From NCBI GenBank assembly GCA_046160485.1, contig JBJXGV010000070.1:13154-77153 (forward strand): a stretch of DNA of 64,000 nt. Reading direction: 5' to 3'. The notes beneath the pieces were generated by a model. The model saw only the letters and a program-made list of their open reading frames with translations. It had not been told where the DNA came from and made no database searches. Positions 1,432 to 40,996 of the stretch are shown here, piece by piece (within the stretch, counting starts at the first letter, position 1; each line of letters opens with the position of its first letter). Source of the stretch: a bacterium. Lineage in GTDB: Bacteria > Orphanbacterota > Orphanbacteria > JBJXGV01. The position numbers and the translations under genes were made by a program.

Positions 1432-1448
1432 GAATTCCTCCTCGCGGC

Positions 1449-2045: not shown

Positions 2046-2049
2046 CGCT

Positions 2050-2688
2050 CTACGTCCTCGCCTCGGGCGCGCGCACGCTGCGCGGCAGCGCCGCCGCGAT
2101 CCAATGCCACGCCGTCTTGTTCGTCAGGAAATCGACCTCCTCCGCGGGAACGTGCACGACGTGCGTCTCGCGAGCGACGCGCTCAATCCACGTGTCGTAC
2201 GCGTCACCGAGCCGCGCGAGGTAGTCGCGATCGATCCGCTTCTCGTAATCGCGTCCGCGCGAACGCACACGCTCGAGCAGGAACTCCGGAGAGGCGCGCA
2301 GGTAGACGATCATGTCCGGCCGCTTCAAGTGACTCGTCAGAATCGCGTAGAGCCGCTGATACATCTGGTGGTCGACGTCGCTTAAGAGCCCCTGCGCGTG
2401 GAGCGCCGTCGCGAAGATCTCGCCGTCTTCGTAAATCGTCCGGTCGACGATGTAAAAACGCTCCTCGCGGCCGAGTTGTTCGAGCGCCTCGTAGCGCCGC
2501 GTGAGGAAGTAGATCTGCGAGTGAAACGCCCAGGCCTTCGGGTCGGCGTAGTACTTCTCCAAATACGGGTTCTCGATCGTCGGCTCCAGATAAGCGCGCC
2601 AACGGAGATTCTCCTCGAGGATCCGCGTGAGAGTCGACTTGCCCGCGCCGATGTTGCCCGCGATGCCGAGGAAGAAGCCGGAAGCCAT
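2050..2688 (-). CDS. Deoxynucleoside kinase (dAK/dGK/dCK family)
   Basis: Start placed at internal Met (MASGFFLGIAGNIGAGKSTL P-loop); conserved E-P and DRTIYED motifs. The listed 261-aa ORF carries an Arg-rich shadow extension. Confidence 0.8.
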   Translation of the reverse strand: MASGFFLGIAGNIGAGKSTLTRILEENLRWRAYLEPTIENPYLEKYYADPKAWAFHSQIYFLTRRYEALEQLGREERFYIVDRTIYEDGEIFATALHAQGLLSDVDHQMYQRLYAILTSHLKRPDMIVYLRASPEFLLERVRSRGRDYEKRIDRDYLARLGDAYDTWIERVARETHVVHVPAEEVDFLTNKTAWHWIAAALPRSVRAPEART

Positions 2689-2696
2689 CGGCCGCC

Positions 2697-3149
2697 TCAG
2701 CCCGGGCTCTTGAATCGGAAGCTGTCTGGGAGCAGTACGTCGAGTGTTTGCACGTCCACACGGCCCGCAAGATCGGACATGATCACGCGCAGCGCGCCGC
2801 CGAACTCGGAGAGCGCCTGGCGGCAGAGCCCGCACGGCCGGACGGGGCCGTCCGTGTCCGCGACGATCGCGATGGCGTCGAACTCGAGTTCGCCCGCTGT
2901 CACCGCCGCGAAGAGCGCCGCGCGCTCGGCGCAGACTGTCACGCCGTACGATGCGTTCTCGACGTTGACGCCGCGATACACACTGCCGGATCGCGCCAGA
3001 AGCGCCGCGCCGACAGGGAATCGTGAGTATGGCGCGTAGGCGTTCGCCCGAGCCGCCGCCGCCGCCGAGACGAGCGCGTTGTCATCCAACGGAGGCGCTC
3101 GCGTCGATCGGCTGAAAGCACGCGCGGCAGCGCGGCTCGTAGATCGCAC
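2697..3149 (-). CDS. cdd: Cytidine deaminase
   Basis: [11 protein letters not shown] and PCGLCRQ zinc-binding motifs. Maximal ORF overlaps tdk; the true start is probably a non-ATG codon near 3090. Confidence 0.75.
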
Positions 3150-3663
3150 CGCCGCCGATGACGACGCGCTCGTGCGATTCGATGAGGCGCTGCGATTTCG
3201 TCGCGGGGCGCCCGCACACGACGCATATCGCCGTCACCTTCGTGATCGAGTCGGCGATCGCGAGGAGCTGCGGAATCGGTTCGAAGGGCTTGCCGAGGTA
3301 ATCCTGGTCCAGTCCGGCGACGATGACGCGCACGCCGCGCGCGGCGAGCGCTTCGCAAACCTGCACGAGCGGCCCCGCGAGAAACTGCGCCTCGTCGATT
3401 CCGACGACGCGCGTGTCGGCGTCGACGAGATCGAGAAGTTCGTCAGCCCGCGAAACGGCGACGGACTCGACGGAGCGCGCATCGTGCGAGACGATCGTGT
3501 CCTTGGAGTAGCGCGTGTCGATCGCCGGCTTGAACGCCTGCACTTTTTGCCGCGCGATCGCGGCGCGGCGAAGGCGCCGGATCAGTTCCTCGCTCTTCCC
3601 GCTGAACATGCATCCGCAGATCACCTCGATCTGCCCGGACGACGAATCGATTCCTTCGATCAT
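3082..3663 (-). CDS. tdk: Thymidine kinase
   Basis: [17 protein letters not shown]-loop, VIGIDEAQF, and C-terminal CxxC...CxxC zinc ribbon (CVVCGRPA...PRCRAC). Confidence 0.85.
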
Positions 3664-7436: not shown

Positions 7437-8696
7437 CTACGCCCGCTCCCCATCGCCGGCGCCGTCGCACCGAGATCCACGCAGCGCCGCCCCTTCGCCG
7501 CGCCCGCGCGGTGCCGCCGCGATCCCCTTCGTCTGCGCAAGAGACGCCGCGATGGCCGAGTGCGCGCGCCGTTTGACCGCGATCATCTCGGCGACGATCG
7601 ATACGGCGATCTCTTCGGGCGTCACGGCGCCAATATCGAGCCCGATCGGTGCGTGAAGCGCCAAGAGCCGCGCTTCGGGAATACCGCGCGCGAGCAACTG
7701 CGCCGCGGCGCGCTCGTGCTTTCTGCGGCTGCCGATTACGCCGAGGTAGCGAGTCGGCGGCAAGCGCAAGAGTCCCTCGAGCACCTGCTCGTCGTACTGG
7801 TGGCCGCGCGTTGCAAGAACGACGAAGTCGTGCGGCGCGAAGTCGACGCGCTCCGAAAGCTCCGCATAACCGGGAAGGACGATGCGGCGCGCGCCCGGAA
7901 AACGCTCGGCGGCGACGTACTTCTCGCGGTCGTCGACGACTGTGACTTGAAATCCCGCAGCGGTCGCGGCGGCGTGCACCGCGCGCGATACGTGCCCGGC
8001 GCCGATCAAGACAACGCGCGGGCGACCCACGACCGGTTCGAGATAGATCGCGCCGCCCGCCGCCCATGCAGAGCGTTCGTCGCGCACGGCGCTCATGGCA
8101 GTCGAGTGCAGCGCTTGCGGAAGCACCGCCAGACCGAGCAGGGGTTCGCCCTCTTCGCCGAGAACGATCCGCGCGGGAGCAGACGCGCCGCTCGCGCGAT
8201 CGCGCGGTGCCGCCGGTTCCGCGCGTGTTCCGATGAGCGGCGGCCCGCCATCGGAGAAAATTCGCGCGAGCACGCTCGTCGTTCCCAACTCGGTGCGGCG
8301 CTCGAGCAACTCACAAAGCGCGATGTCGCCCAATTCGAGCCGTTCCAGGAGAATCTCGACGGTTCCTCCGCAAACCATCCGCAATTCTTCTTCGGTTTCG
8401 GTCAATGTGAACACAACGCGCGCCCACCCTCCGGCCGCGCGCAGCTTCTGCGCCTCGCGCTGCACCTCCGCTTCGAGACAGCCGCCGCCAACGGTACCAA
8501 TCGCTTCGCCCGTATCGGAGACGAAGAGGCGCGACAGCACGGGCGCGGGCGTCGAGCCATGCACCGACGCGATCGTCGCCATCACGCCGCCGCCACACCG
8601 CGCCAATTGTTGCGCGCATTCACCAAAATGATTTCGAGAAGACACCGCGTCGCACTCCTCTCTGACGAGATCTGGTATCATGATATCACTTCGCAC
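7437..8696 (-). CDS. XdhC/CoxI-family accessory protein
   Basis: N-terminal VMATIASVHGSTPAP...TVGGGCLEAEV and central Rossmann-like VVLIGAGHVSRAV motifs typical of XdhC. Start may be 8681 or 8696. Confidence 0.65.
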   Translation of the reverse strand: MRSDIMIPDLVREECDAVSSRNHFGECAQQLARCGGGVMATIASVHGSTPAPVLSRLFVSDTGEAIGTVGGGCLEAEVQREAQKLRAAGGWARVVFTLTETEEELRMVCGGTVEILLERLELGDIALCELLERRTELGTTSVLARIFSDGGPPLIGTRAEPAAPRDRASGASAPARIVLGEEGEPLLGLAVLPQALHSTAMSAVRDERSAWAAGGAIYLEPVVGRPRVVLIGAGHVSRAVHAAATAAGFQVTVVDDREKYVAAERFPGARRIVLPGYAELSERVDFAPHDFVVLATRGHQYDEQVLEGLLRLPPTRYLGVIGSRRKHERAAAQLLARGIPEARLLALHAPIGLDIGAVTPEEIAVSIVAEMIAVKRRAHSAIAASLAQTKGIAAAPRGRGEGAALRGSRCDGAGDGERA

Positions 8697-8745
8697 AGTG
8701 CGAAGATCGACCCCCGTCGAACGCCATCAACCTCGGAGTCACAAG

Positions 8746-10995
8746 ATGAGCTGCACGCGCACCGCTTGCTTTGCATCCGCTCTCGTCTTCGCCGTACTGC
8801 TTGCGCCGTCCACCCCGAGCGCGCAGGTCGTCCTCAACGAAATCCTACCGAACCCCGCCGGCGACGACGTCGGCACAGAACGCATCGAAATCGTGAATGC
8901 TGGGCCGACATCCGTCGACGTGACGGGATGGGCCATCGATGACGCCGCGACGATCGATGAAGTGGGCGTGCGCTGCCGGATCCCTGAAGACTTCGACACC
9001 TCGGTCTGCTCGGGAAGTGCCATCCTCGCGCCGGGAGAGTTTCGCGTCGTGAAGGGAACATCCACGGCCGCGTTTCTCAACAACAGCGGTGACGACGTCT
9101 ACCTCATCAAAGATCGCACGCTCGCGCCGGTCGTCGCCGACCTCGTTACGTATCCGAGCGCGGCTCTGCAAGTCGACATGACGTGGGGCGCGATTCCGAA
9201 CGGGTCCGAGAACTTCGCGTGGCGAACGAAGACGCTCTGCGGGTCGAACGGCGGAGCGGGCGACTTCATCGCGCCCTCGACGATCGCGGATCTCGCCGCG
9301 GTGTCGGGTGCGTACTCCGGCGAAGTGCGCCTCACGTGGACCGCGCCCGGCGACGACGGCATGACCGGCACCGCGAGCGCATACGAATTCAAGGTTGCCC
9401 TCTCGTCGATCAACGCGGGGAATTTCGACACCGCGACCGATCTCGAATTTTGGATCAACGCGCCGCTGCCGCAGGCCGCGGGCACCGCGGAAACGCTTGT
9501 TGTCTTCGGGCTCGATCCCGCGTTCACGTGGCACTTCGCGGTGAAGGCGGTCGATGACGCGGCGAACCTCGGCGCCGTCTCGAACAGCCCGAGCGCGCTG
9601 CCGCTTGCAGGCGCGCTCCCCGATCCGAATCTTGGCGGCAACGTCTACTTCGGAAATCTGCATGCGCACACCGGATACTCGGACGGGCAGCTCACGCCCG
9701 CCGACGCCTACAGCTTCGCGCGGAACACGGCGCCGACGCCGCTCGACTTCCTCGCGGTAACCGATCACAACCACGCCGGCGCGGGAATGTCGCTGCCGAA
9801 CTATTCGCTCGGGCTCGCGCAAGCTGCCGCGGCGAACGATGACGGCAACTTCGTCGCGATCTACGGGCAGGAGTGGGGATTCGCTTCGAACGGACACGTC
9901 AATATTCTGGAAGCGCCCGTGCTCTTCGGCTGGGAGGCCGGCAACTACGACGTATTCGTCGCGGAAGGCGACTACCCGAGCCTCTACACCGCCGCGCTCG
10001 CGAACCCGCCCGCTTCCTATCCGGTGGTTCTGCTCTGGTGTCATCCTGCGGCGAGCGACTTCGACAACCTCGCCGTCACGAGCGATGGATTGGCGGCGGT
10101 TCATCTCATGTGTCTTGTGAACGGTCCCGCGTTCTCGACCGCGACCGACGAAACCGACGTCGGCAACACGGGCTTCGACGATGTTTTCCACGAAGCGCTC
10201 CGCAAGGGATACCGCGTTTCGCCGACCGCCGACCAAGATAATCACAACGTTACGTGGGGTGCGTCGTCGCAGAGTCGTACCGCGGCGCACGCGAGCACCA
10301 AATCGAAGGCCGCGATTCTCGGCGCGCTCGCGGCCGGCAACAACTACGCGACTCAGGATCACAACGCGCGTGTCGACTTCACCGCGGACGGGCACGGAAT
10401 GGGCGAGGCGTTCACGGCGACGAGCGGCGTGCGAATCGCGGTGCGCGTGACGGACCCGGATGTCGGCGAGACGGTGTCGCTCATCGAACTCTTCCGCGGT
10501 ATCCAAGGTGTTTCATCCGCGGTCCGCGTCGCGTGGAACGCCGACAACAACGAGCTGCATTGGCGCGAGCTCGAAGAGTTCGCCGACGGGACCGAGGTGC
10601 ACTACACGCTGCGGATCCGTCAGGGCGACAATCACAGCATTTGGACCGGACCCGCGTACATCACCTATCAATCCGCGACGGGCGTTGCGGACGGAGCGAG
10701 CGCTCCGGCGTCGGCCATTCGCCTCGCTTCCCCCACGCCGAATCCGACGCGCGGCGCAACGCGCATGGCGTTCGCCTTGCCGCGCGACGTCGCCCGCGTG
10801 CGCGCGACGTTGTTCGACGTCGAGGGACGGTTGACGCGTGTCCTTCTCGACCGGCCGCTCGGCGCGGGCAATCACGAGGTCAGGTGGGACGGCGGCCTCG
10901 CGTCGGGCCGCCAGGCGCCGCCGGGCATCTACCTGCTCCGGCTCGATGCGGGCGACGAAGGATCCGCCACCGCGAAGATTCACCTGCTTCGCTAA
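8746..10995 (+). CDS. Secreted multidomain protein: signal peptide, lamin-tail domain, Fn3-like domain, PHP phosphoesterase domain, C-terminal FlgD-like/sorting-type beta-sandwich tail
   Basis: Start at internal Met (MSCTRTACFASALVFAVLLAPSTPSAQ signal). LTD motif VVLNEILPNPAGDD...ERIEIVN...VDVTGWAIDD; PHP motif YFGNLHAHTGYSDGQ...VTDHNH; C-terminal tail PPGIYLLRL. Confidence 0.75.
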   Translation: MSCTRTACFASALVFAVLLAPSTPSAQVVLNEILPNPAGDDVGTERIEIVNAGPTSVDVTGWAIDDAATIDEVGVRCRIPEDFDTSVCSGSAILAPGEFRVVKGTSTAAFLNNSGDDVYLIKDRTLAPVVADLVTYPSAALQVDMTWGAIPNGSENFAWRTKTLCGSNGGAGDFIAPSTIADLAAVSGAYSGEVRLTWTAPGDDGMTGTASAYEFKVALSSINAGNFDTATDLEFWINAPLPQAAGTAETLVVFGLDPAFTWHFAVKAVDDAANLGAVSNSPSALPLAGALPDPNLGGNVYFGNLHAHTGYSDGQLTPADAYSFARNTAPTPLDFLAVTDHNHAGAGMSLPNYSLGLAQAAAANDDGNFVAIYGQEWGFASNGHVNILEAPVLFGWEAGNYDVFVAEGDYPSLYTAALANPPASYPVVLLWCHPAASDFDNLAVTSDGLAAVHLMCLVNGPAFSTATDETDVGNTGFDDVFHEALRKGYRVSPTADQDNHNVTWGASSQSRTAAHASTKSKAAILGALAAGNNYATQDHNARVDFTADGHGMGEAFTATSGVRIAVRVTDPDVGETVSLIELFRGIQGVSSAVRVAWNADNNELHWRELEEFADGTEVHYTLRIRQGDNHSIWTGPAYITYQSATGVADGASAPASAIRLASPTPNPTRGATRMAFALPRDVARVRATLFDVEGRLTRVLLDRPLGAGNHEVRWDGGLASGRQAPPGIYLLRLDAGDEGSATAKIHLLR

Positions 10996-11004
10996 CGTAT
11001 CGCG

Positions 11005-12519
11005 TTGCCGCCGCTCGACACCATCACGCGCGAGCCGAAGGCGTCCGATCTCGACGCGGGCGCCGCGGGGCTCGTCCAGCGGATGCACGCCGTGATCGAG
11101 CAGCTTCACGTCGCGCGCGCGGAGCTCTCGCCCGATGCCGTGCACGACCTCCGCGTTGCGCTTCGCCGATGCCGATCGATCGCCGAAGGCGCCGGGGCGA
11201 TCGACTCGCATCGAAGCTGGCGGCGCCTTCGCCGTGCGAGCCGGTCGCTCTTCCGGCAGCTCGGCGCGCTGCGCGACGCTCACGTGATGGCGGAGTGGAT
11301 CGAGAAGCTTGCGCCCGCCGGCGATACCGCGCGCGAACGCCTCTCCGCGCAGATTCACGCACGCGAAGCCCAGCTCGCTCGGTCGGCGCGCGACGCCGTG
11401 TTCGAGTTCGACGACGCCGCGTGGCGCGCGCTCGCCGCGGTGGTCGCCGCGCGCGCGGAGAGGCTGCGCCCTGGCAGCGCCGTCTTCCGCCACCTTGCGC
11501 TCGAGCGCTGGACCGAGGCGCGTGCGCTTCACGATGCCGCCCTCGAAAGCGGCAGCGGTGAGGCGTTCCACGCGCTGCGCATCGGCGTGAAGCGATTTCG
11601 CTACACCGTCGAAAACTTTCTTCCTCGGAAATACGAGGTGTGGGCGAAGCAGTTCAAGCGCGTTCAGGACTCCCTCGGCGAGATGCACGACCTCGACCTG
11701 CTCTGGGGCGCCATCGCCGCCGCCGAGCCGCCGCTTTCCGACGAGGAGCTGGCCGAGTGGCGCGACGTGCTCAGCAACGAACTCGAATCGCGTCTCTCCG
11801 ACTACCACGAACGCATGAGTGGCGATGATTCTCTCTGGGCGGAGTGGCGGGACGGGCTGCCGGACGAAGGCGCGCTTCCCGCCGTTTCGTTCGCGCGCGT
11901 TGCGGCCTGGGCCGCGCTCCGCGACCCGGCTCCGCGCCACGCGCGCCGTGTCGCGAGGCTCGCCGTGGAAATCTTCGACGGCCTCGGCGCGCTCGAGCGA
12001 GCACATCCGTTCGGCGATCGACGATCCCGGCGGTCTCTGCGCGGGGCGGCGCTCGCGCATCACATCGGACGCGCGGGCGGCCGCAGCCGCCGCCACAAGC
12101 GCACCTATCGATTGCTCACCGAACTGCGCGCACCGCTCGGTTGGGAAGAAGATGAGATTCGCGCGGTGGCGATCATCGCGCGCTACTATCGCGGGTCAGA
12201 GCCGCATGCGTCCCATGCGGGCTTTCGCGATCTCGACGCCGCGGGCCGCACGGCGGTCTCCGCACTCGCGGGCGTCCTGCGCATCGCAGACGCGCTCGAC
12301 AGCCGGCACGACGGCGCGGTCGCGCATGTGCGCGTCGAGTCGGCGCCCCCCGCGATTCTCGTTCGAGCGTTCGGATACGAAGAGGACCAACGCACCGCGG
12401 CTCGCATGGGCGGCAGAAAGCGACTTCTCGAGTCCGTTCTCGGCCGTCCGATCGTGGTCTTGGGCGCGCAGCGCGACGAGTCGCCTGCCATTCGCGCCGG
12501 AGCGCGCCCTCCGCGCTAA
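11005..12519 (+). CDS. CHAD domain protein fused to a Ppx/GppA C-terminal (HD-like) domain
   Basis: CHAD signatures (VHDLRVALRRCRS; FHALRIGVKRFRY). C-terminal 200 aa align block by block with the C-terminal domain of the neighbouring Ppx (HARRVARLAVEIFDGL vs HAEHVRSLALSLFDQL; AIIARYYRGSEP vs ACLVRYHYKAEP). Confidence 0.75.
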   Translation: MPPLDTITREPKASDLDAGAAGLVQRMHAVIEQLHVARAELSPDAVHDLRVALRRCRSIAEGAGAIDSHRSWRRLRRASRSLFRQLGALRDAHVMAEWIEKLAPAGDTARERLSAQIHAREAQLARSARDAVFEFDDAAWRALAAVVAARAERLRPGSAVFRHLALERWTEARALHDAALESGSGEAFHALRIGVKRFRYTVENFLPRKYEVWAKQFKRVQDSLGEMHDLDLLWGAIAAAEPPLSDEELAEWRDVLSNELESRLSDYHERMSGDDSLWAEWRDGLPDEGALPAVSFARVAAWAALRDPAPRHARRVARLAVEIFDGLGALERAHPFGDRRSRRSLRGAALAHHIGRAGGRSRRHKRTYRLLTELRAPLGWEEDEIRAVAIIARYYRGSEPHASHAGFRDLDAAGRTAVSALAGVLRIADALDSRHDGAVAHVRVESAPPAILVRAFGYEEDQRTAARMGGRKRLLESVLGRPIVVLGAQRDESPAIRAGARPPR

Positions 12520-13013
12520 CGCGCCAACGCGCGCAGCATCTTTCCGGTAAGCAGCCAACCGATCGTCGCCTGCGGCGGGACGGCGGATTTCATTTCGAGG
12601 CACGCGATGCCGGCTTTCTTCAACGCGGTCGCCGCGCCCTTGGCACCCAGCGCGAGGGAGATCATCTCGTCGAGGTGCGTGGCATGGCCGAAACACGCGA
12701 CATCCTTGCCGTTGAGCTTCGCGATCTCCTGAAAGATCGCGCGCGGATTCGCGCACGGCTTGAGCGCCGCGGTCTTGCGAAGTGCCGACTTCGAAACGTC
12801 GAAGGCTGCGGCGAAAAGCTCGGCCGTCTCGAGCGCGCGCGTGTAGGGACTCGTAAGAAAGACCTCGGGCGCCGCGCCGAGCGCGCGGAAGCCGCGCGCT
12901 GCGGCTTGCGTTTTGAGGATTCCGTCCGCCGTCAACGCACGCGCCGGATCGGCGGGCGAAGCGGGGTCGTTCCGATCGATCGCGATTCCATGCCGCACGA
13001 CGTAGAGCCTCAT
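12516..13013 (-). CDS. sixA: Histidine phosphatase family protein (SixA-like phosphohistidine phosphatase)
   Basis: MRLYVVRHGIA N-terminal RHG motif, about 165 aa, conserved late His (CFGHATH). Confidence 0.7.
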   Translation of the reverse strand: MRLYVVRHGIAIDRNDPASPADPARALTADGILKTQAAARGFRALGAAPEVFLTSPYTRALETAELFAAAFDVSKSALRKTAALKPCANPRAIFQEIAKLNGKDVACFGHATHLDEMISLALGAKGAATALKKAGIACLEMKSAVPPQATIGWLLTGKMLRALAR

Positions 13014-13037
13014 GATTTCTGAAAATCCCCCTCGAGC

Positions 13038-14579
13038 CTAGTGGGCCGCCGCCGACTCGACGCGCACGACCACGCCGAATTCTTCTTCGAAGAGGCTCGC
13101 ACGCCGCGCAGCCTCATCGATCGATCGCCTTTCGGCTTTCGCCGGCGTCACGCGAATGACCACTTCGCCGCGAACGAACGCGACGTCGACCCGGCGAACG
13201 GCGCGACCCATGTCGACGTCGAGCGCGGACGCGAGGCGAAGAATCGCGGTGAGCCCGCGCACCTGATGTTGCCGCTCCGTATCGAGCCCTCCGTACACCT
13301 TGTGATCGGGCACCGGTTCCGCTTTGTAGTGATAGCGCACAAGACACGCGAGCATGTCGCGCCGCCATCCGTTGATGCCATCGATCTCGCCGTGGCGCAC
13401 GAGATATTCGCCGTGTTTGTGATGATCGCGATGGTTGACGAAGTGCCCCGCGTCGTGAAGAAGCGCGCCGAGCGACAAAACGACGCGCTCGTCGCGGCCC
13501 ATTCCGTGCAGCGGGCGGAGCTGATCGAAAAGCGAAAGCGCGAGCGATCGCACGTGCTCGGCGTGTTTCATGTCGCAGTGAAGCCGCCGCCCGAAGGCGC
13601 GCGCCTTCTCGAGAAGCAACCGCGAACGCGCGTCGTCCGGCCCGATCGCCGGCAGCGCGAAGTGGCCGCTTACGAGGTCGTCGAGCACGCCTTCGCGAAC
13701 GCCGACGCCGGGCACGAGCAACTCGCGCAGCGAGAGCATCCGCCCGAGAGTCGTGAATATGATCGCGGCGATTCCCATCACCTCGGCGCGGTCGCGGCGC
13801 ACATCGAAGAGCCGCATCCGTCCGCGAACGTCGTTCGAGAGAATCTGCGGGAGGCGGTTCGTCAGCACGCGAAGGCTCAGCGACGGGATGCCGTGCGGCC
13901 GCCGGCCCGGCGCGATCTGCGCGAGCGCTTCCGCGTTTCCGCCGCAGGCCACGACGACGGCGCGCGACAGGTCGCCTGCGCGAGAAAGATTGCGTCCGAT
14001 CTTCGCGACGATGCGGCGCTCGAGCGCGGCTCGCATCGCCGCGTCGATTTTGCCGGACACGTCGAACGTTTCCATAAGGCGCACGGTCCCGACCGGAAGC
14101 GTGACGCTCCGCTCGACGTCGCCGCCGCGCATCAGGTTCAGCTCCAAGCTCCCGCCGCCGAGATCCACGATCAATCGCGGCGCAAGATCTTCCCCCAGGC
14201 TCGCGCGCACGGCCGCGCGCACCAGGCGTGCTTCGTCATTGCCGCCGATGACCGTAAGCCGGATGCCCGACTCGCGCTGAATCCGGCGTAGGAGCGCGGC
14301 GCGATTCTTCGCCTCGCGCGTCGCCGAGGTCGCCACCGCGCGGTACTTCGTGACGTGATACCGGTTCATGAGCGCGCGGAAGTGGCAAAACGCCTTCGCT
14401 GCCGCGGCGATCGTCGCGCGGTCGAACGCACCATCCGTGAAGACGTTGTGCCCGAGCCGAACGGGGACGCGCTCCGTCTCGAGCACGCGGACGCGAAGCG
14501 GCGACTCGGCGCGGGCGATCAACAAGCGAATCGCGTTCGATCCGGCGTCGATCGTCGCGAACTGAACCGGTGCGTTCAC
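13038..14579 (-). CDS. ppx: Exopolyphosphatase / guanosine pentaphosphate phosphohydrolase (Ppx/GppA)
   Basis: GTG start at 14577-14579 (VNAPVQFATIDAGSNAIRLLIA); IVDLGGGSLEL actin-like fold motif; C-terminal LLHDAGHFVNHRDHHKH HD-like domain. The listed 747-aa ORF has a long shadow N-terminus. Confidence 0.8.
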   Translation of the reverse strand: MNAPVQFATIDAGSNAIRLLIARAESPLRVRVLETERVPVRLGHNVFTDGAFDRATIAAAAKAFCHFRALMNRYHVTKYRAVATSATREAKNRAALLRRIQRESGIRLTVIGGNDEARLVRAAVRASLGEDLAPRLIVDLGGGSLELNLMRGGDVERSVTLPVGTVRLMETFDVSGKIDAAMRAALERRIVAKIGRNLSRAGDLSRAVVVACGGNAEALAQIAPGRRPHGIPSLSLRVLTNRLPQILSNDVRGRMRLFDVRRDRAEVMGIAAIIFTTLGRMLSLRELLVPGVGVREGVLDDLVSGHFALPAIGPDDARSRLLLEKARAFGRRLHCDMKHAEHVRSLALSLFDQLRPLHGMGRDERVVLSLGALLHDAGHFVNHRDHHKHGEYLVRHGEIDGINGWRRDMLACLVRYHYKAEPVPDHKVYGGLDTERQHQVRGLTAILRLASALDVDMGRAVRRVDVAFVRGEVVIRVTPAKAERRSIDEAARRASLFEEEFGVVVRVESAAAH

Positions 14580-14581
14580 CC

Positions 14582-15349
14582 CTAGCGCCAAAGAGGAGCG
14601 AGCGCGGCCGAAGGCTGGTAGCGTGTTCTGCGAATGCCGAGGTGCTGCGCGATGCGGCGGCGAAGCCCGTTGTTGATCGCGCGAATCCCCAGCTCGCCGT
14701 CCATCTCCTCGAACTTGTGGCGCCGCGAGAGCGACTGGAACTGCGTGCGGACCAACTGCTGGTAACGGATAAACGAGCGATACAGATCGTTCGAGAGCGA
14801 CATATCGCGCCCCGCTTCCCAATAGCTGATGACGCTCGACTTCTTGAACTCGCGTTCGAACGCGGCTTGCGGGCCGACCTTGAGCCAGAACGTCAGGTCG
14901 GGGCGAAGCGCCATCGCGTAGAGGCCGTGCAGGTATTCGCGCGAAAGCCCGCGCACCGCGCTCCGCGCGATCAGCGAGTAGATGTAGCGGTCGGCGAGCA
15001 CGACCATTCCCGATCGAAGGGCCGGAATGATGCGGTGCTCGAGCTGATCGAAGAAGTCGGTGGCGTACATGAGCGCGAGCGTCAGGCGCGTGACGGCGTT
15101 TTCCGCGAGAAGGTTGTCGATGTCGCGCGCCACGAGATTCGAGCGCCGCAGTCCCATCGTCTGGACTGGAAACCCCTCGGACTCGAGCCACTCTTTCAGA
15201 AGCGCGATCTGGGTCGACCGCCCGGAGCCGTCCGTCCCTTCGATGACGATCAGAGAGCCCGACAGCTCTTCGGGTGCGCACCCGGGAAGCACGGTTCCGT
15301 AGAAGCGTGTCGCCTCGACCGACGCCGCCTTTCGCTTTCGCGTCGTCAT
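14582..15349 (-). CDS. Thymidylate kinase-like P-loop kinase (paralog 1)
   Basis: Start at internal Met (MTTRKRK); LIVIEGTDGSGRSTQ P-loop and VLADRYIYS (DRY) motif. Confidence 0.7.
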   Translation of the reverse strand: MTTRKRKAASVEATRFYGTVLPGCAPEELSGSLIVIEGTDGSGRSTQIALLKEWLESEGFPVQTMGLRRSNLVARDIDNLLAENAVTRLTLALMYATDFFDQLEHRIIPALRSGMVVLADRYIYSLIARSAVRGLSREYLHGLYAMALRPDLTFWLKVGPQAAFEREFKKSSVISYWEAGRDMSLSNDLYRSFIRYQQLVRTQFQSLSRRHKFEEMDGELGIRAINNGLRRRIAQHLGIRRTRYQPSAALAPLWR

Positions 15350-16077
15350 CGGCGCGGACCGAACCGGCTCAGATCGATTCGCGTTGCGACCTTCGCCCGC
15401 ATATCTTCTTGCAGTTTGTTCACGGGCAACGTGCCGTCCATCAGCACGAAATTGTCGGTTGCGATCATCTGCTCGTACTCGTCCATGATCATTCCCTGGA
15501 AGCGGCGGAAACTTTCGCCGGGATCGAACGACAATCCCAAGTCCATCCCCGCCTCGTAGTGTTTGAGTTTCGGGCGCCCGCCGAGGATGCGATTGACCGC
15601 GACGTCGAGCGGCGCGCGGAAATAGAACGTGATATCGGGAATCGGCGCGAAGCCGTAGAGATTGCGAAGCCACGCCGTCGAGCAGCCGCGAGCCGAGTCG
15701 CGCGCGAACGCCGTGTAGATGTAGCGGTCCGCGAGCACGAGGTAGCCGCTCTGCAACAGCGGGAGAATCTGCCGCTCGCACCGGTCCGCGAAATCGGCGG
15801 AGTGCAGAAGCGAGAACGTGACGGGCGTCAGGAGCCGGCGGCGTTTTCCGCGCCGCGTCGCCGCCTTGACGAGCAGCGACGAATTCCACTCGGTGAAGTG
15901 AATCCGGTACCCCGAGATCTCGAGCCAGCGCTTCAGAAGATAAAGCTGCGTGCTCTTCCCGGAGCCGTCGATTCCTTCGACGACGATGAGCGCGCCAGGA
16001 TAGTCGCGGCCGCCCGTGTTCCGCGCACTGGCGCGGAGCGCCGCCGCGCGCGGCTCTTTTGCGAGGACGCGTGTCAT
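15346..16077 (-). CDS. Thymidylate kinase-like P-loop kinase (paralog 2)
   Basis: LIVVEGIDGSGKSTQ P-loop and LVLADRYIYT motif; 4-nt overlap with paralog 1. Confidence 0.7.
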   Translation of the reverse strand: MTRVLAKEPRAAALRASARNTGGRDYPGALIVVEGIDGSGKSTQLYLLKRWLEISGYRIHFTEWNSSLLVKAATRRGKRRRLLTPVTFSLLHSADFADRCERQILPLLQSGYLVLADRYIYTAFARDSARGCSTAWLRNLYGFAPIPDITFYFRAPLDVAVNRILGGRPKLKHYEAGMDLGLSFDPGESFRRFQGMIMDEYEQMIATDNFVLMDGTLPVNKLQEDMRAKVATRIDLSRFGPRR

Positions 16078-16213
16078 GACGGTGAGATTACACGCTGCAC
16101 AGCGAACGAGGGAAGCGATGAACGCGCCCCGAGTGTGACAATTCCGTGGTGGTGCGTGGCACCACGAGTGTGCAGAGGAATCGCGACGCGAGCGGCCATG
16201 GAGGCGAGCGCGG

Positions 16214-17419
16214 CTAAAGGCCGACGCGCGCGCGCTTGGCGAGAACGGATTCGGAAAGACACGGGCAATCTTGCAGGACCGAAAGCGTCACGGTCCTCCC
16301 GGAAGCAATCGTCGCAACGACCGTCACGGGCGCGCCGCTCCCGAGCTCGCGCGCCAGCTCCACGTCGCCTGTGGCCGTCGGCCGGAACGTCAGCGTCGCA
16401 ACGCCGCCGGAGAATCGCCCCTCGTCGATCGGGATCGGGCCATAGCGGATGTCGTCGTTCTCGAGTGTCACGCTGCCGTCGAGGATCGAACCTTCCTGCT
16501 CCGTGGCGATTCTCAGATCGTAGCTCTCGCCGGCGATCGTCGCGGGAATCGTGATCTCGAATTCGTCGTAGACACGCGCGGCCGTCCAGGACGTTCCGCC
16601 GGTGAAGCAGGTATCGATCACTCCGGCAACGTTCGTCTCCTGCCAGATGAAGAAGCGCACGACGCTCCCCTGATCGAGACGACCCGCGTAGCGAATCGGC
16701 GCGGCGCAACCGAGCGACTCCGCGAGCGCGCCCGTCGGATCGTCGGCGGGATCGACGATGAAGAAGATGGTGCTCGTGTCGGAGACGCCGCCTGTGACCA
16801 GCGGGAGCGTCGGCCCGATCGTCCCGCCCTGCGCGTTCCCGTACGTGATCTGAATGTTCCCGGTAAGCGACGCACCGTCTTGGATGAGGGAGAGCTCGCC
16901 GAGCATTCGCGAGCGCCCGAGCGGGCGGTCGAGCGGGCCCCGCGCGGTGAAGACCGGCGTTTCCAACGCCGCCGCGCCCGAGGCGACGAGGCACTGCTCG
17001 CTCGCGCAGTTCTGCGACACGCTCAAGAGCATCGTTTCGCGGTTCACGAGCGCGCCGTCGAATCGAACGGGCGCCGCGTTGCCGAACGCGTCGATCACCG
17101 CGACGATCGGCGGCGAGAACGGATCGATCGTGAACGAGAACCCAGCATCCGAGAGCGAACCCTGCGCGAGCGCGTACTCGCCGACCGGTTCGCGATTCTC
17201 GAGGACGATCAGTCGGCCGCCGATCGAGGTGTCGCGTTCCTCGAGCTCGAGGATCGCCTCCGTGCCATCGAGGTCCGTGATTTCCCAGCGGCCGGTGATG
17301 GAGTTCGAGGACTGCAGCGGGTCGCCGCTCTCGCCGCAGCCGAAGAGAAGCATGGCGACCGAAAGGACGAGAGGCGCGCGGATCGATCGCGCATTCGATG
17401 AGGACGCTCGCCAGATCAC
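16214..17419 (-). CDS. Hypothetical lipoprotein
   Basis: N-terminal signal with lipobox (LVLSVAMLLFGCGES); Thr/Gly/Ser-rich non-shadow composition; no recognised catalytic motif. Confidence 0.5.
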   Translation of the reverse strand: MIWRASSSNARSIRAPLVLSVAMLLFGCGESGDPLQSSNSITGRWEITDLDGTEAILELEERDTSIGGRLIVLENREPVGEYALAQGSLSDAGFSFTIDPFSPPIVAVIDAFGNAAPVRFDGALVNRETMLLSVSQNCASEQCLVASGAAALETPVFTARGPLDRPLGRSRMLGELSLIQDGASLTGNIQITYGNAQGGTIGPTLPLVTGGVSDTSTIFFIVDPADDPTGALAESLGCAAPIRYAGRLDQGSVVRFFIWQETNVAGVIDTCFTGGTSWTAARVYDEFEITIPATIAGESYDLRIATEQEGSILDGSVTLENDDIRYGPIPIDEGRFSGGVATLTFRPTATGDVELARELGSGAPVTVVATIASGRTVTLSVLQDCPCLSESVLAKRARVGL

Positions 17420-17481
17420 GGCGGCAGTCTACAAGGCGGGCGCGCCGCCCGCAATAACGAAGGTGCGCGCGCCGGGCCGAA

Positions 17482-19023
17482 CTAACCCGGAAGCTTCACG
17501 TCGATCATGAGGAGGCTCCCCTTTGCAACGAGCGAGAACGCGAATTGGAGCGCGAGAATCGCGATGAGGCCGCGCGTGCCGCCGGGCACGCCGCCGCGCG
17601 TCGCGGCGATCACCACGGGCGCAACGAGAAAGAGCCACACGCGCGAAGTCTCCGCGGGGATGAGTCCCGAGAGGTCGAGCACCGCGAGGAACGCGAGCAC
17701 CGCGAGCGTGAAAGGCGCCTCGATGCGGCGTGCGCGAAGGTCGCGAACGGCCGCGAACACCTCGCGCGCGAAAAGCACCGCCACGGCGGGCCCGAGGAAA
17801 ATGAAGAAGTCGGGGAGATTCCAGAAGACCCACGTGAGCCACTCGCGCCGCTGCTCCGGAATCAGAACCTCGTGCTGGATCTTGTAGGCGGCAAGGAAGA
17901 CGCGCGGAATCGAGCAGCCCGTCGCGAGCTGGAACAGCGCGAGGACCGAGGCGAATCCAGCGCCGAGGGCGAGCAGACGCCGCAGGCGCCAGCGCGGCGG
18001 CGGCCGCGTCCCCGCGTCGTCCGCCCGAGCAAATCGCGTGATCGTAATATCCACAATGCCAACAAGTAACAGAAAGAAGCTCGCCACGAACGTAAAGAGG
18101 CAGAGCACCCCGCACAGCGCGCCGGCGGCCACGAGCGACCGGAGTCCGCGCCCGCGGCCGACAAGGAGGAACGCAGCGAGGATCAGAAGCGGATACGCGG
18201 CATCGAACTCCCCGGCGAAGAGGAGGTGCGACGGGATCACGGCTAGGAGGAGCACGGCGGCGCGAGCAGCCGGCGCGCCGCTCAGTCGACGCGCGAAGAA
18301 GAACGCGGGAATCAGCGCCAGGCGCGAGCAGATGACGACGGCGAGCCCAACGATGATCAGGCTCGCGAGCTCGGCCGGAGCCGCGCCCGGAAGATCGCCC
18401 TCGGAGATCCCGAACGCGCGCGCCACGCCGAGCACGCCATCGGTCGCGCCCGCCGACCCGCGGAAGAACTCGAGAATCTGGTGATTGACCGCAACGAGTC
18501 CCGGCGGATGCGTGCGCGCGTGATGCGGCAGTCCCGCCACGATTTCGTGGAACGACGTCAGCATCTCGGGCAGCGACGTGACGGAGCGCGCGGTCCAGAA
18601 GTAGCCGGTCACCCATGGCACGACGTGAATGAGCGGCAGCGTCACGGGCCCGAGCGGCGAGAGTCCGAGAAACGACAGCTCGAGCGCGATCGCGATCAGA
18701 ACGACGAGTGCGAGCATCGCCGCGTCGCCGCGAGGGCGCGAGTCGCGCCGGCGAGTCCACGTCGCGGCCGCCCCCGCGAGCAGGGCGAAGAGGAGTGTCG
18801 TCCCGAGCGCACGCGGCCAAAGCGACGTCGCGACGTACGGCCATCGCCAAGAAGGCGGGCCGACGATCCACGGGAACCGGACCAGAAGAAGAATCGCAAT
18901 CGCCACGGTCGCGGCCGCGGCAGCGATCAGAACGCGCCGGTCGCCGCGAGCGCCGTCGTGCGTCGCGTTCGCGCCATCCTCGCTCACGGTGCGTCCCCGA
19001 TCATGCCGTTGCGCGAAATCCAA
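17482..19023 (-). CDS. Polytopic integral membrane protein, unknown function
   Basis: More than 10 hydrophobic segments (LIAAAAATVAIAILLLV, FTFVASFFLLLVGIV etc.). Start uncertain: the listed start overlaps the upstream SGNH gene by 40 nt. Confidence 0.5.
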   Translation of the reverse strand: MDFAQRHDRGRTVSEDGANATHDGARGDRRVLIAAAAATVAIAILLLVRFPWIVGPPSWRWPYVATSLWPRALGTTLLFALLAGAAATWTRRRDSRPRGDAAMLALVVLIAIALELSFLGLSPLGPVTLPLIHVVPWVTGYFWTARSVTSLPEMLTSFHEIVAGLPHHARTHPPGLVAVNHQILEFFRGSAGATDGVLGVARAFGISEGDLPGAAPAELASLIIVGLAVVICSRLALIPAFFFARRLSGAPAARAAVLLLAVIPSHLLFAGEFDAAYPLLILAAFLLVGRGRGLRSLVAAGALCGVLCLFTFVASFFLLLVGIVDITITRFARADDAGTRPPPRWRLRRLLALGAGFASVLALFQLATGCSIPRVFLAAYKIQHEVLIPEQRREWLTWVFWNLPDFFIFLGPAVAVLFAREVFAAVRDLRARRIEAPFTLAVLAFLAVLDLSGLIPAETSRVWLFLVAPVVIAATRGGVPGGTRGLIAILALQFAFSLVAKGSLLMIDVKLPG

Positions 19024-20018
19024 TCGAAGATGGCGCGCGCCGCGATCGCGTGGCCGGCGGCGTTCATGTGGTTATCGAGCGGCGTGACGGAGAGCGCCGA
19101 GGCGGACTTGCCGAGGAAGGCCGGGAGAAGGTCGAGATGCTCGATAGCCGCGCTCGCGCAGAACGCGACGACTTGCTCGTGCGCCGCGCGAAGCGGATAC
19201 GAATCGTCGAGGCTCACAATAAACGGGAGGACGACGACGCCGAAGCGGCCGCCGCTTGCGCGCACGTCGGTGGCGAGCGTACGAATCCCCGCTTCACACG
19301 CGAGCCAGCCCGGGGCGCGCGCGGCGAAGGTGTCCGCGTAGCGCCCGACGGCGGAACCGCGCGGGGCGATCCCGAATCGCCGCGCGAGCGCCGCGCCGCG
19401 CGACTTGACGAACTGCACCGTGCGGAGGGGCGGAACCCGAAGCCGAGACGCGCGCCGCGGCGCGGGCGCGATCCCCGCGGCCGGAGCGGCCGTTTTCGCC
19501 GCGGCCGCGAGCACCGGCGGATCGACGTCGTTCATGAAGAATCCGACAAGCACCAGATCAGGCGCGCGGGGCGCGACATCGAGCGCGAATGCCTCCGCTT
19601 GCTGCGCCGTATTCGACCCGATCATCGCGAAATTCTCGACCTCCCAGCGGCGATCCGGAAACGCGTCGGCTAGCATTTCCGCGAGCTGCACCGCGAAGGT
19701 TTCCTCATCGCGCACGCCCCAACCGAATGTCATCGAGTCGCCGAGGAGCGCGATTCGAAAGGTGCCGGGCGCCTTCGCGACGTCGAGTTCTGCGCCGCGA
19801 TAGCCCGAGGCGTTCGTGCGCACCGGAACGCCGGCGATCACACCCGTCGCGCTCGGCGGCAAACACGCAAGCCGCGGCGAAGCGGGGTGCGGCACGAGCG
19901 CCATCCCCCACGGGCGGTCGAACGAGCGGAGCCAGAGTTCGCAGCACGCGAGCGCTACGATGAGCGACAGCGCGATGAGCAGTAGGCGTGCGGCCCACTC
20001 GCGAGAGCGTGATATCAT
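18984..20018 (-). CDS. Membrane-anchored SGNH/GDSL-like hydrolase family protein
   Basis: N-terminal TM helix; block I FRIALLGDSMTFGWGV; block V-like DNHMNAAGHA. Confidence 0.7.
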   Translation of the reverse strand: MISRSREWAARLLLIALSLIVALACCELWLRSFDRPWGMALVPHPASPRLACLPPSATGVIAGVPVRTNASGYRGAELDVAKAPGTFRIALLGDSMTFGWGVRDEETFAVQLAEMLADAFPDRRWEVENFAMIGSNTAQQAEAFALDVAPRAPDLVLVGFFMNDVDPPVLAAAAKTAAPAAGIAPAPRRASRLRVPPLRTVQFVKSRGAALARRFGIAPRGSAVGRYADTFAARAPGWLACEAGIRTLATDVRASGGRFGVVVLPFIVSLDDSYPLRAAHEQVVAFCASAAIEHLDLLPAFLGKSASALSVTPLDNHMNAAGHAIAARAIFDWISRNGMIGDAP

Positions 20019-20026
20019 CCGGCGCG

Positions 20027-22141
20027 ATGACCGCCGCGAAAACCTCGGCCGCCGCGCGCGCCGCGCTGATACTCGTCGGCCTTCTTCTCTTCGCGGCGCT
20101 CGAAGGGTTGCTCGCGCTCGCCGGTCTCGGCGGTGCGCGCGATCGCGGCGACCCGTTCCTCGGGTTCAGCCAGGAGTACGCGATCTTCGTTCCCGATGCG
20201 ACGGGCGCGAGGCTCGTCACCGATCCCGCGAAGCGCGAGTCGTTCAACGAGCAGGCGATCGCGCGCACGAAGGCCGAGGGGACGATTCGCATCTTCTGCC
20301 TCGGCGGCTCGGCGACGTACGGGTTTCCGCGCGGCGCGGCCGGCGCGTTCCCCGCGATCCTCGGCGAGAAACTCGCGCGCGCGTTCCCCGCGCGGCGCTT
20401 CGAGGTCGTCAATCTCGGCGGGCTCTCGTACGCGGCGTTTCGCTGCGTCAACGTCGCGCGCGAGGTCGCGCGTTACGAACCCGACGCGATCCTCTACTAC
20501 GACGGGAACAACGAGTACGTCGAGCGGCGCTTCTTCGCGGAGATGCTCGCCGAACCCGCGTGGAGGCGAAACCTGCGCGCGCAAGCGAGCCGCCTTCGAA
20601 CGTACACGCTGCTGAAGAAAGCGATCGATCGCGGCCGCCCCCAGCGCTGGAGCGGCGACGAGTCGGAACTCTTCGGCGTGCGCGTTCTGCGCGAGGACAA
20701 CGAGTCCCTTCCGAGAAGCGATGCGGAGGATCGGGTCATCGAGGAGAGTTTCGCGGCGTCGCTCGCGCAGATGCGCGCGATCGCGCGCGAGGCCGGCGCG
20801 GCCTTCGTCGTCGGCGTCGCCGCTGTGAACGAAGCCGATTGGCCGCCGGGACTTTCGCTTCACGATCCCTCCAAGGACTCGGCGGCGATCGCCGCGTTCG
20901 ACGGGCGCATGCAGGAGGCCGCGCGGCTTCGCGCCTCGGGCGACATCGCGGGCGCCGCGCGCGCGTTCGAGGCCGCGATCGCAATCGATTCGCGTTACGC
21001 AGCCGCTCACTTCGAACTCGGCGGATGCTATCACGCGCTCGGAGAGAGTCACAAGGCGCGCGCGGCGTTCCGCGCGGCGATCGCGTCGGACGGGCTGCCG
21101 ATTCGCGCGACGCCGCGCATTCAGAATGCCGCGCGCGCGTTTGCGGACGCGTCCGGCACGCCGCGCGTCGACATCGACAGCCTCTTCGCGAGCATCTCAC
21201 CGGGCGGCATCATCGGCCGCGAGTTGTTCATCGACTATTGCCACCCGACGCGCGATGGCCACGAGCGGATCGCGGACGCGTTCTTCGCGGTAATCGCACG
21301 CGATCTGCTCGACGCGCCGGGCGCGCCGCCGCCCGCGATCGGCCCGGACGAAGCGCCGAGCGATACGTCGTCCGCGTTCGGCATCGCGTGGGAGGGGCAG
21401 ATGTTCATTCGGCAGGGACGATTCGCTGAGGCCGAGGAGCGCTTTCGCGCCGCGCTCGCGCTCGACGCGGAGCTCTCCTACGCGCTCGAGGGAATGGGCC
21501 GCTGCCTGATCGCGCGCGGCGACTCCGCGGGCGCGGTTTCGTTCTACGAGAGCGCCGCTCGCGTGAACCCGGGCAATCCGACGATCCTCACGAATCTCGC
21601 GAACACATATCTCGCGGTGGGACGCATGGCGGAGAGCGAAGCGGCGATACGCAAAGCAATCGACGCGGATCCGAACTCGGCGAGCGCGCGGCTACTCCTC
21701 GCGCGGCTCCTCGCGCGCAGCGGGCGCGCGCCGGAAGCGCGCACCACGCTCGAGGCCGCGGTCGCGGCGAGCCCGGCGAACGCGGACGCGCGCAAGCTCC
21801 TCGCGCGCCTCCTCGCGGACGCGGGCGAGACCGCCGCCGCCGAGGCGCACTATCGCGAAGCGCTTCGCCTCGACCCGAGCGACGGAGCCGCCGGCTACGC
21901 GCACGCGATTCTCTTGATCAAGCTGGAGCGACCCGACGAAGCGCTCGCGATACTCGACGCGGCGATCGCGCGGAATGCCGACTTCTACCCCGCCATCGGA
22001 GCGGCCGGAGTTCTGCGCATGAACCGCGGAGAGCGCGACGCCGCCGTGCGCCACTTCCGGCGCGTGCTCGAGCTTCACCCTGGCGATCAACTCGCCTCGC
22101 GCTATCTCGCGGTACTCGAGAGTCCGGGGGGCGTGCCGTAA
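20027..22141 (+). CDS. SGNH-like domain protein with C-terminal TPR repeats
   Basis: Start at internal Met (MTAAKTSAAARAALILVGLLLFAAL). IRIFCLGGSATYGF block I variant, DYCHPTRDGH block V; C-terminal half is TPR-like (AEAEERFRAALALD, AEAHYREALRLDP). Divergent from the 18984-20018 gene. Confidence 0.7.
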   Translation: MTAAKTSAAARAALILVGLLLFAALEGLLALAGLGGARDRGDPFLGFSQEYAIFVPDATGARLVTDPAKRESFNEQAIARTKAEGTIRIFCLGGSATYGFPRGAAGAFPAILGEKLARAFPARRFEVVNLGGLSYAAFRCVNVAREVARYEPDAILYYDGNNEYVERRFFAEMLAEPAWRRNLRAQASRLRTYTLLKKAIDRGRPQRWSGDESELFGVRVLREDNESLPRSDAEDRVIEESFAASLAQMRAIAREAGAAFVVGVAAVNEADWPPGLSLHDPSKDSAAIAAFDGRMQEAARLRASGDIAGAARAFEAAIAIDSRYAAAHFELGGCYHALGESHKARAAFRAAIASDGLPIRATPRIQNAARAFADASGTPRVDIDSLFASISPGGIIGRELFIDYCHPTRDGHERIADAFFAVIARDLLDAPGAPPPAIGPDEAPSDTSSAFGIAWEGQMFIRQGRFAEAEERFRAALALDAELSYALEGMGRCLIARGDSAGAVSFYESAARVNPGNPTILTNLANTYLAVGRMAESEAAIRKAIDADPNSASARLLLARLLARSGRAPEARTTLEAAVAASPANADARKLLARLLADAGETAAAEAHYREALRLDPSDGAAGYAHAILLIKLERPDEALAILDAAIARNADFYPAIGAAGVLRMNRGERDAAVRHFRRVLELHPGDQLASRYLAVLESPGGVP

Positions 22142-40947: not shown

Positions 40948-40996
40948 CCGACCAGATCATCGGCCAGCCGGAGCGATTTCGCGATGCCGGGGCGCG

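Follow-up and report, generated by a model that had tools for sequence, protein, structure and literature searches.

Why would a bacterium carry, side by side, two diverged genes for proteins that resemble thymidylate kinase (Tmk), directly followed by a gene for an exopolyphosphatase? The question is raised by a stretch of 64,000 nucleotides from a bacterium of the lineage Orphanbacterota, Orphanbacteria, JBJXGV01 (assembly GCA_046160485.1, contig JBJXGV010000070.1, positions 13,154 to 77,153 of the forward strand), the whole of which we call the window and number from its first letter. The pair consists of gene A (15346..16077, minus strand, ATG start, 243 residues) and gene B (14582..15349, minus strand, 255 residues). 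We propose, at a probability of roughly 85%, that they encode the catalytic (c-type, A) and the regulatory (r-type, B) subunits of a bacterial polyphosphate kinase 3 (PPK3) inside an operon for polyphosphate (polyP) metabolism. The locus is most likely a mis-annotated case of an enzyme kind that is already known and was recently defined; public records call the product of A 'dTMP kinase', i.e., a kinase of thymidine monophosphate (dTMP).

Homology of the pair and its substrate sites

A and B overlap by four nucleotides in an ATGA that contains both the stop codon of A and the start codon of B (15346..15349, minus strand; read directly from the sequence), an arrangement that would couple their translation. 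A has the P-loop EGIDGSGKSTQ, B the P-loop EGTDGSGRSTQ, and an ADRY motif occurs in either; aligned without gaps over 214 residues, they show 36% identity (E=4e-47), far more than chance would give. An earlier note on this DNA had described adjacent, ATGA-overlapping Tmk-like paralogs of 256 and 243 residues with P-loops, DRY motifs and N-terminal extensions; the comparison bears out the paralogy, the motifs, the overlap, the extensions and the 243 residues of A, and corrects the length of B to 255. Compared with the homologs of E. coli and Sulfolobus, both proteins are extended at the N-terminus by ~27-30 residues, and B has in addition a conserved C-terminal tail of ~15 residues. The extensions of B (14582-14630 and 15260-15349) contain an N-terminal RFYGxxLPG and a C-terminal Y-x-P-S-x-A-L-A-x-L-W-R, are modelled by AlphaFold2 (AF2) at a pLDDT (predicted local distance difference test) of ~87-93, are conserved in acidobacterial-type r-subunits and absent from those of Sulfolobales, and may be extra interface elements.

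Searched against the PDB with phmmer, A matched STK_15430 (2plr/5h70) at E=3e-62 (213 bits), the best canonical Tmk reaching 55 bits, and B likewise matched STK_15430 best (E=2e-36), canonical Tmks attaining ~1e-13 at most for either protein. This best solved-structure match of both A and B, also named ST1543, comes from Sulfurisphaera tokodaii and was deposited as 'dTMP kinase' (2plr, 4nzy, 4rzx and 5h70); it binds adenosine diphosphate (ADP) at the P-loop as Tmk does (PMC12995831), and its publication as an unusual thymidylate kinase relied on nothing but assays of ADP formation (preprint 10.1101/2024.08.28.610084). Its crystals hold the c-type subunit alone, whereas the window encodes a c + r pair. 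A is 46-47% identical to STK_15430 and to Saci_2019 of Sulfolobus acidocaldarius, and 25% identical to E. coli Tmk.

Saci_2019, the catalytic subunit (cPPK3) of the characterized enzyme SaPPK3, makes polyP from adenosine triphosphate (ATP) and ATP from polyP and ADP, a reversible reaction with a strong preference for the direction polyP + ADP -> ATP (Höfmann et al., J Biol Chem 2026, PMC12995831; preprint 10.1101/2024.08.28.610084). It has no dTMP kinase activity, the true dTMP kinase of that organism being Saci_0893, encoded elsewhere, and its partner Saci_2020 (rPPK3), inactive alone, activates it at 1:1 in an a2b2 complex (PMC12995831). The earlier note's idea of a catalytic and a regulatory copy, or of a heterodimer, agrees, by analogy, with this experimentally shown pair.

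The division of A and B into the two types was examined with c-type and r-type hidden Markov models (HMMs) built without any Sulfolobus sequence. A scored 372 bits with the c-type HMM and 216 bits with the r-type HMM, B 193 and 344 bits, Saci_2019 269 and 197 bits, Saci_2020 92 and 142 bits, and E. coli Tmk 40 and 51 bits, respectively. In alignment, A shares TEWNSS, the Walker-A Lys (K41), DRY (R118) and basic stretches with Saci_2019 and STK_15430, and B shares with Saci_2020 the r-type markers Y95 (Tyr for the thymine-stacking Phe) and D101-Q102 (D-Q for D-R). A neighbour-joining tree placed Saci_2020 on a long basal branch outside the r clade, so its r-type assignment is taken from the HMM scores and common motifs. 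The fold agrees as well: the AF2 model of B, made from a 52-sequence alignment, has a pLDDT of 91.6 and a predicted template modelling score (pTM) of 0.88, covers a C-terminal helix and the conserved N-terminal segment, which are missing in Sulfolobus, and finds STK_15430 chains as its best structural matches in Foldseek (template modelling score 0.88-0.93, normalised to target length).

Neither protein matched the PPK2 family PF03976 at E<=0.01, and B had only a 15.5-bit P-loop match to TIGR03708. The two-domain class II PPK2 of Pseudomonas aeruginosa (PA3455) is also a P-loop polyP-dependent nucleotide kinase, and offers an analogy in that one of its modules, a catalytically inactive paralog, helps the active module to oligomerise and become activated (PMC12995831); it differs in belonging to another P-loop family (PF03976) and in being one fused chain as against two genes. 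Moreover, the nucleotide and polyP sites of PPK3 are swapped relative to those of PPK2 (PMC12995831).

What, then, separates the pair from canonical Tmk (E. coli; TIGR00041; EC 2.7.4.9), with which it shares the fold, the P-loop, the DRX motif and the LID arginine? Both proteins passed the threshold of Pfam PF02223 (Thymidylate_kin; 70 bits for A and 74 bits for B), and against the TIGR00041 equivalog (cutoff 83.25) A fell below with 78.3 bits and B marginally above with 84.4 bits. Apart from the identity of only ~25%, canonical Tmk lacks a PPK3-specific insertion (E-A-G-x-D...) found after the LID, and A and B stand away from holB. An alignment with Tmk substrate residues, which the earlier note had proposed, was run against the tmk product of the E. 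coli K-12 record: F74 corresponds to H92 (A) and Y95 (B), R78 to F96 and F99, R39 to T62 and M65, T105 to A123 and L126, and Y108 and Q109 are lost in both. What stands in for F74 and R78 varies little or not at all within 80 c-type and 79 r-type homologs. The nucleotide-site elements are kept in A and B, namely the glycines of the P-loop, the Asp of DRX and a LID Arg (E. coli R149, R163 in A, R166 in B). The note had considered a simple duplication in which both copies retain every Tmk substrate residue, but A and B both have other residues at the dTMP contacts; its thymidylate-kinase frame named the wrong substrate, these residues being gone and the homolog Saci_2019 being devoid of dTMP kinase activity (PMC12995831). 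A and B are thus probably not thymidylate kinases.

On the other hand, a set of basic residues separates the two types. Ten positions (R50, K71, R76, R80, R99, R102, R154, R168, K172 and R191 in A numbering) are Lys or Arg in at least 80% of the 80 c-types and in fewer than 30% of the 79 r-types, and an eleventh, K78, is Lys in 100% of c-types but also in roughly half the r-types. All eleven of these c-type basic residues are present in A and none in B. In the published enzyme the polyP-binding basic cleft is present in the catalytic subunit only (PMC12995831), and the c-type positions appear to fit such a cleft.

The Walker-A arginine of the probable regulatory subunit

If B is the regulatory subunit, what makes it so? 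The inactivity of rPPK3 has been attributed to replacement of the DRX arginine (Höfmann et al., PMC12995831). In B this arginine is kept as R121 (CGC codon, 14987..14989, minus strand), where Saci_2020 has Gly, and it is Arg in 100% of the 79 r-types. The residue that B has changed is the Walker-A Lys: the CGG codon of R44 (15218..15220, minus strand) places Arg there, whereas the corresponding AAG codon of A (K41; 15955..15957, minus strand) specifies the Lys found in 100% of 80 c-type homologs. The Lys-to-Arg change was present in 120/120 close homologs of B and in 79/79 r-type neighbours; among 50%-identity cluster representatives the position is Arg, occasionally Cys, and in fusions the P-loop is fully degenerate.

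The r-types of Sulfolobales show how the two changes are distributed. Those of S. tokodaii (the neighbour of STK_15430), Metallosphaera sedula and Acidianus sulfidivorans carry both (GSGRT + DGY, as against GSGRST + DRY in B), with a P-loop EGxEGSGRT like that of bacterial and Nitrososphaerales r-types. Saci_2020 combines DGY with GKTT (P-loop GIMSSGKTT), its Walker-A Lys being present, and is the outlier among r-types, while B combines the DRX Arg with the Walker-A Arg. DGY was seen only in the four Sulfolobales r-types examined, Saci_2020 included. In the sequences compared, DGY seems to belong to the lineage of the reference enzyme and not to the family as a whole, and the family-wide r-type change is Walker-A Lys to Arg. 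The latter has no mention in the main text of the Höfmann et al. paper or of the preprint; the Walker-A Arg signature of the regulatory subunit is the most useful by-product of this analysis.

In P-loop nucleoside triphosphatases (NTPases), a Lys-to-Arg change in Walker A usually keeps nucleotide binding and abolishes transfer. On this ground we infer that B binds nucleotide as a partner of A and does not catalyse transfer; it would be expected to bind nucleotide without efficient transfer because it lacks the basic cleft and has Arg for the Walker-A Lys.

Of the alternatives to the proposed catalytic and regulatory pair, the one that survives best, although we consider it improbable, is a PPK3 with two competent subunits, in which B performs a second phosphotransfer (e.g., AMP to ADP, or with another nucleotide) and the complex holds two kinds of active site. 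The conservation of B is what speaks for it: E37, D40, G-x-G-R-S-T, D120-R121-Y122, R129, R133 and the LID R166 stand at ~100% across the 79 r-types, B is conserved as strongly as A (>70% identity across Acidobacteriota), and B has not undergone the inactivating change described in the paper, loss of the DRX Arg. However, i) no r-type examined combines the Walker-A Lys with an intact DRX arginine; ii) the Lys-to-Arg change usually spares binding and abolishes transfer, as said; iii) R168 and K172, basic residues of the LID, have no basic counterpart in B, nor has any other basic residue of the c-type cleft; and iv) Saci_2020 is inactive alone (PMC12995831).

Gene neighbourhood, fusions and distribution

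Does the company that the pair keeps agree with polyP? Directly downstream of B, with its GTG start 2 nt past the stop of B, lies the gene of a 513-residue exopolyphosphatase (ppx; 13038..14579, minus strand) with the Ppx/GppA N-terminal domains and a domain III/HD part (Pfam PF02541 1.5e-43 and PF21447 4.4e-26; tblastn with E. coli Ppx E=4e-22), which scored 207 bits against TIGR03706, under its cutoff. It is followed after 24 nt by the gene of a SixA-like histidine phosphatase of 165 residues (12516..13013, minus strand; PF00300, RHG at residues 7-9), which scored 57 bits against TIGR00249 (sixA), again under the cutoff. A 504-residue CHAD protein with a C-terminal HD / Ppx-GppA domain III module (11005..12519, plus strand; PF05235 3.6e-31, PF21447 1.9e-10 and PF01966) converges on the 3' end of this series, its final 4 nt overlapping the end of the sixA-like gene. 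The C-terminal half of the CHAD protein (11935-12444) is itself ~30% identical to domain III of the PPX (13074-13568; tblastn E~1e-7 in both directions). The earlier note had remarked that the pair is placed with ppx although tmk usually stands with holB, as in E. coli, and this neighbourhood is the key clue to the identity of the pair. The genes A-B-ppx-sixA are spaced by a 4-nt overlap and gaps of 2 nt and 24 nt; a promoter and terminator scan of 12300-16400 gave nothing above shuffled expectation, so the operon is called from gene spacing and synteny.

In S. acidocaldarius the operon reads sixA-ppx-2019-2020-CHAD (PMC12995831), a layout that we confirmed in the sequence of that locus. The window and SaPPK3 thus share adjacent paralogs of the dTMP kinase fold in the order c-then-r, clustered with ppx, sixA and a CHAD gene, i.e., five gene families. 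They differ in gene order (c-r-ppx-sixA with a convergent CHAD-HD gene in the window), in the N-terminal extensions of A and B and the C-terminal tail of B, in host (a thermoacidophilic archaeon versus a high-GC, ~66%, bacterium) and in the length of the neighbours: PPX has 411 residues in Sulfolobus and 513 in the window, which includes domain III, and the CHAD protein 206 and 504, the latter with the HD module.

For the breadth of the family, we scanned one genome per GTDB species with a c-type-only alignment and inspected 80 loci, to which the following counts and claims refer; the scan total of '560 relatives' may include canonical Tmks, since one of the search patterns was a generic P-loop. 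The bacterial loci came from Acidobacteriota (the closest, at 73-79% identity), Dormibacterota, Verrucomicrobiota, Sumerlaeota, Armatimonadota, Bdellovibrionales, Longimicrobiales and others, and the archaeal ones from Nitrososphaerales and Nitrosopumilales. The nearest PPK3 relatives, together with the matching operon layout, hint at an acidobacterial affinity of the source. A c-type gene was immediately followed by an r-type gene on the same strand in 79/80 loci, the lone exception ending at a contig edge. Within 8 kb we found PPX in 54/80, SixA in 29/80, a true CHAD domain in 23/80 and any of the three in 56/80; the exact layout of the window, including the convergent CHAD gene in the same position, recurred in 15 loci, and PPK1 lay within 8 kb in only two. 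Among protein sequences, more than 120 clusters at 90% identity were at least 73% identical to A, some of them with hundreds or thousands of member sequences, and all homologs that carry a source name are called 'dTMP kinase' or 'thymidylate kinase'. The published account places PPK3 chiefly in archaea and adds 'a few taxonomically scattered bacteria', among which the preprint names Acidobacteriota (PMC12995831; 10.1101/2024.08.28.610084); the protein searches and the genome scan indicate that bacterial members are many.

Natural fusions join the same parts. Among the cluster representatives, P0363 (460 residues) is a single chain of c + r only, and P0381, P0395, P0406 and P0464 (620-696 residues) are c + r followed by a C-terminal Ppx-GppA domain III/HD. 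The r-modules of these longer fusions are degenerate, with P-loops such as GAHHAGVTH and GADKHATAR and with DRY often lost. The fusions give Rosetta-stone support for a physical association of c and r and for a link to the HD module of the window CHAD protein. A c-r heteromer accordingly has indirect support from the ATGA coupling, the c-r adjacency and the c + r and c + r + HD fusions, and would be formed by A and B as well. A single-sequence AlphaFold model of P0363 reached a pLDDT of 35 and was unusable for the c-r interface. A distant relative, P0498 (1178 residues), has an unexplained architecture of an MFS transporter domain, a c-like module of the Tmk fold and a DUF2252/APH phosphotransferase-like domain.

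These neighbours also allow a kinase pair that acts on some other substrate of the polyP and alarmone network, such as a nucleotide or a (p)ppGpp-related compound handled by Ppx/GppA, in place of polyP. Ppx/GppA-family enzymes can use pppGpp besides polyP, the window PPX lies under the 'exopolyphosphatase only' cutoff, and the bacterial members are known from sequence alone. Yet A is 46-47% identical to a demonstrated polyP kinase or its close homolog, the conserved c-type basic positions (e.g., K78, R99, R168 and K172) suit a polyanionic chain, and CHAD proteins associate with polyP granules (PMC10892726); we regard this alternative as very improbable. Genuine thymidylate kinases (dTMP + ATP -> dTDP + ADP) arisen by simple tandem duplication, perhaps as a heterodimeric Tmk, are hardly credible: the PF02223 scores, the TIGR00041 score of B (84.4 against 83.25), the names of the public homologs and the presence of no other tmk within the 64-kb window would suit them, but neither protein keeps the thymine-stacking Phe, the O4-binding Arg or the remaining dTMP contacts, A is under the TIGR00041 cutoff, conserved linkage ties the pair to ppx, sixA and CHAD and not to holB, and in S. 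acidocaldarius dTMP kinase activity belongs to the separate Saci_0893 and not to Saci_2019 (PMC12995831).

Elsewhere in the window, 271-3663 on the minus strand has the appearance of a compact nucleoside-salvage cluster, with an adenosine deaminase (271-1431), an open reading frame (ORF; 1449-2045) that resembles ribose-5-phosphate isomerase B by eye, a deoxynucleoside-kinase-like P-loop protein (~2050-2690, GNIGAGKST), a cytidine deaminase (2697-3149, by its CAE...PCGxC motifs) and a thymidine kinase (3082-3663). A weak match of E. coli Tmk at 2098-2322 was rejected as a tmk, being the deoxynucleoside-kinase-like gene, and a large ORF upstream of the CHAD gene (8632-10995) was rejected as PPK1, being a lamin-tail/FlgD-Ig protein. 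Beside the operon, 16214-22141 holds genes with weak or no family assignment: a 401-residue protein (16214-17419) and a 513-residue protein (17482-19023; hydrophobic, membrane-like by eye), both with no Pfam match, a GDSL-like lipase (18984-20018) and a GDSL + TPR protein (19988-22141). Another GDSL-like gene lies at 39730-40956.

Proposed mechanism and its meaning

How far does the assignment of A and B to PPK3 carry? Several points weigh against it: i) activity, direction and a2b2 assembly are extrapolated from one archaeal enzyme, to which A is 46% and B ~30% identical; ii) B has an intact D120-R121-Y122, so the change to which the paper ascribes inactivity is absent and the predicted inactivity of B draws on the Lys-to-Arg change and the missing basic cleft; iii) the c-specific basic positions were derived from the alignments, independently of the cleft residues of Fig. 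S16 of the paper; iv) co-transcription of A-B-ppx-sixA is judged from spacing; and v) the searches for other kinases speak for the window, in whose 64 kb neither a canonical tmk nor PPK1 was found (tblastn with E. coli Tmk and PPK1 queries) and no PPK2 Pfam match occurred among the ORFs scanned, which cover it in part; the pattern published for PPK3 genomes is a separate canonical dTMP kinase and usually neither PPK1 nor PPK2 (PMC12995831).

Under the PPK3 assignment, the activity and stoichiometry of the complex and the inactivity and nucleotide binding of B follow by analogy with the Sulfolobus enzyme and from general knowledge of P-loop proteins. A would bind ATP or ADP at its P-loop in the fashion of dTMP kinase, hold the end of a polyP chain in a conserved basic cleft in place of the thymidylate pocket, and transfer the terminal phosphate reversibly (polyP(n) + ADP <-> polyP(n-1) + ATP). 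B, translationally coupled to A through the ATGA, would assemble with A, probably as a2b2 as in Sulfolobus, and stimulate it; itself non-catalytic, it would bind nucleotide and carry out no efficient phosphate transfer. The co-transcribed PPX would hydrolyse polyP, and the SixA-like phosphatase and the convergent CHAD-HD protein would be members of the same polyP module.

A bolder extension is possible, although we think it unlikely to hold as a whole. Here and in most PPK3, the r-subunit would be a Walker-A Lys-to-Arg pseudokinase that binds ATP or ADP at an otherwise intact site (P-loop, DRY and LID Arg) and thereby makes the direction of the complex, polyP synthesis versus ATP regeneration, respond allosterically to energy charge; the loss of the DRX Arg would be a peculiarity of Sulfolobales, and in soil Acidobacteriota and Verrucomicrobiota PPK3 would act as a major polyP kinase, and would not be an archaeal enzyme of 'a few bacteria'.

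Because both genes are entered in public databases as 'dTMP kinase' in all named homologs listed, annotation overlooks the polyP metabolism of these bacteria. The family-wide Arg-for-Lys in the r-subunit P-loop gives a testable handle on the regulatory subunit, one that differs from the feature stressed for the single characterized enzyme. If the assignment is true, PPK3 would be a polyP kinase of many uncultured soil bacteria, with carriers that include Acidobacteriota, Verrucomicrobiota, Dormibacterota, Armatimonadota and Gemmatimonadota-like lineages, and for some of them it may be the main one, since in the neighbourhoods inspected PPK1 stood so rarely nearby. Such a role bears on models of phosphorus cycling and of energy buffering.

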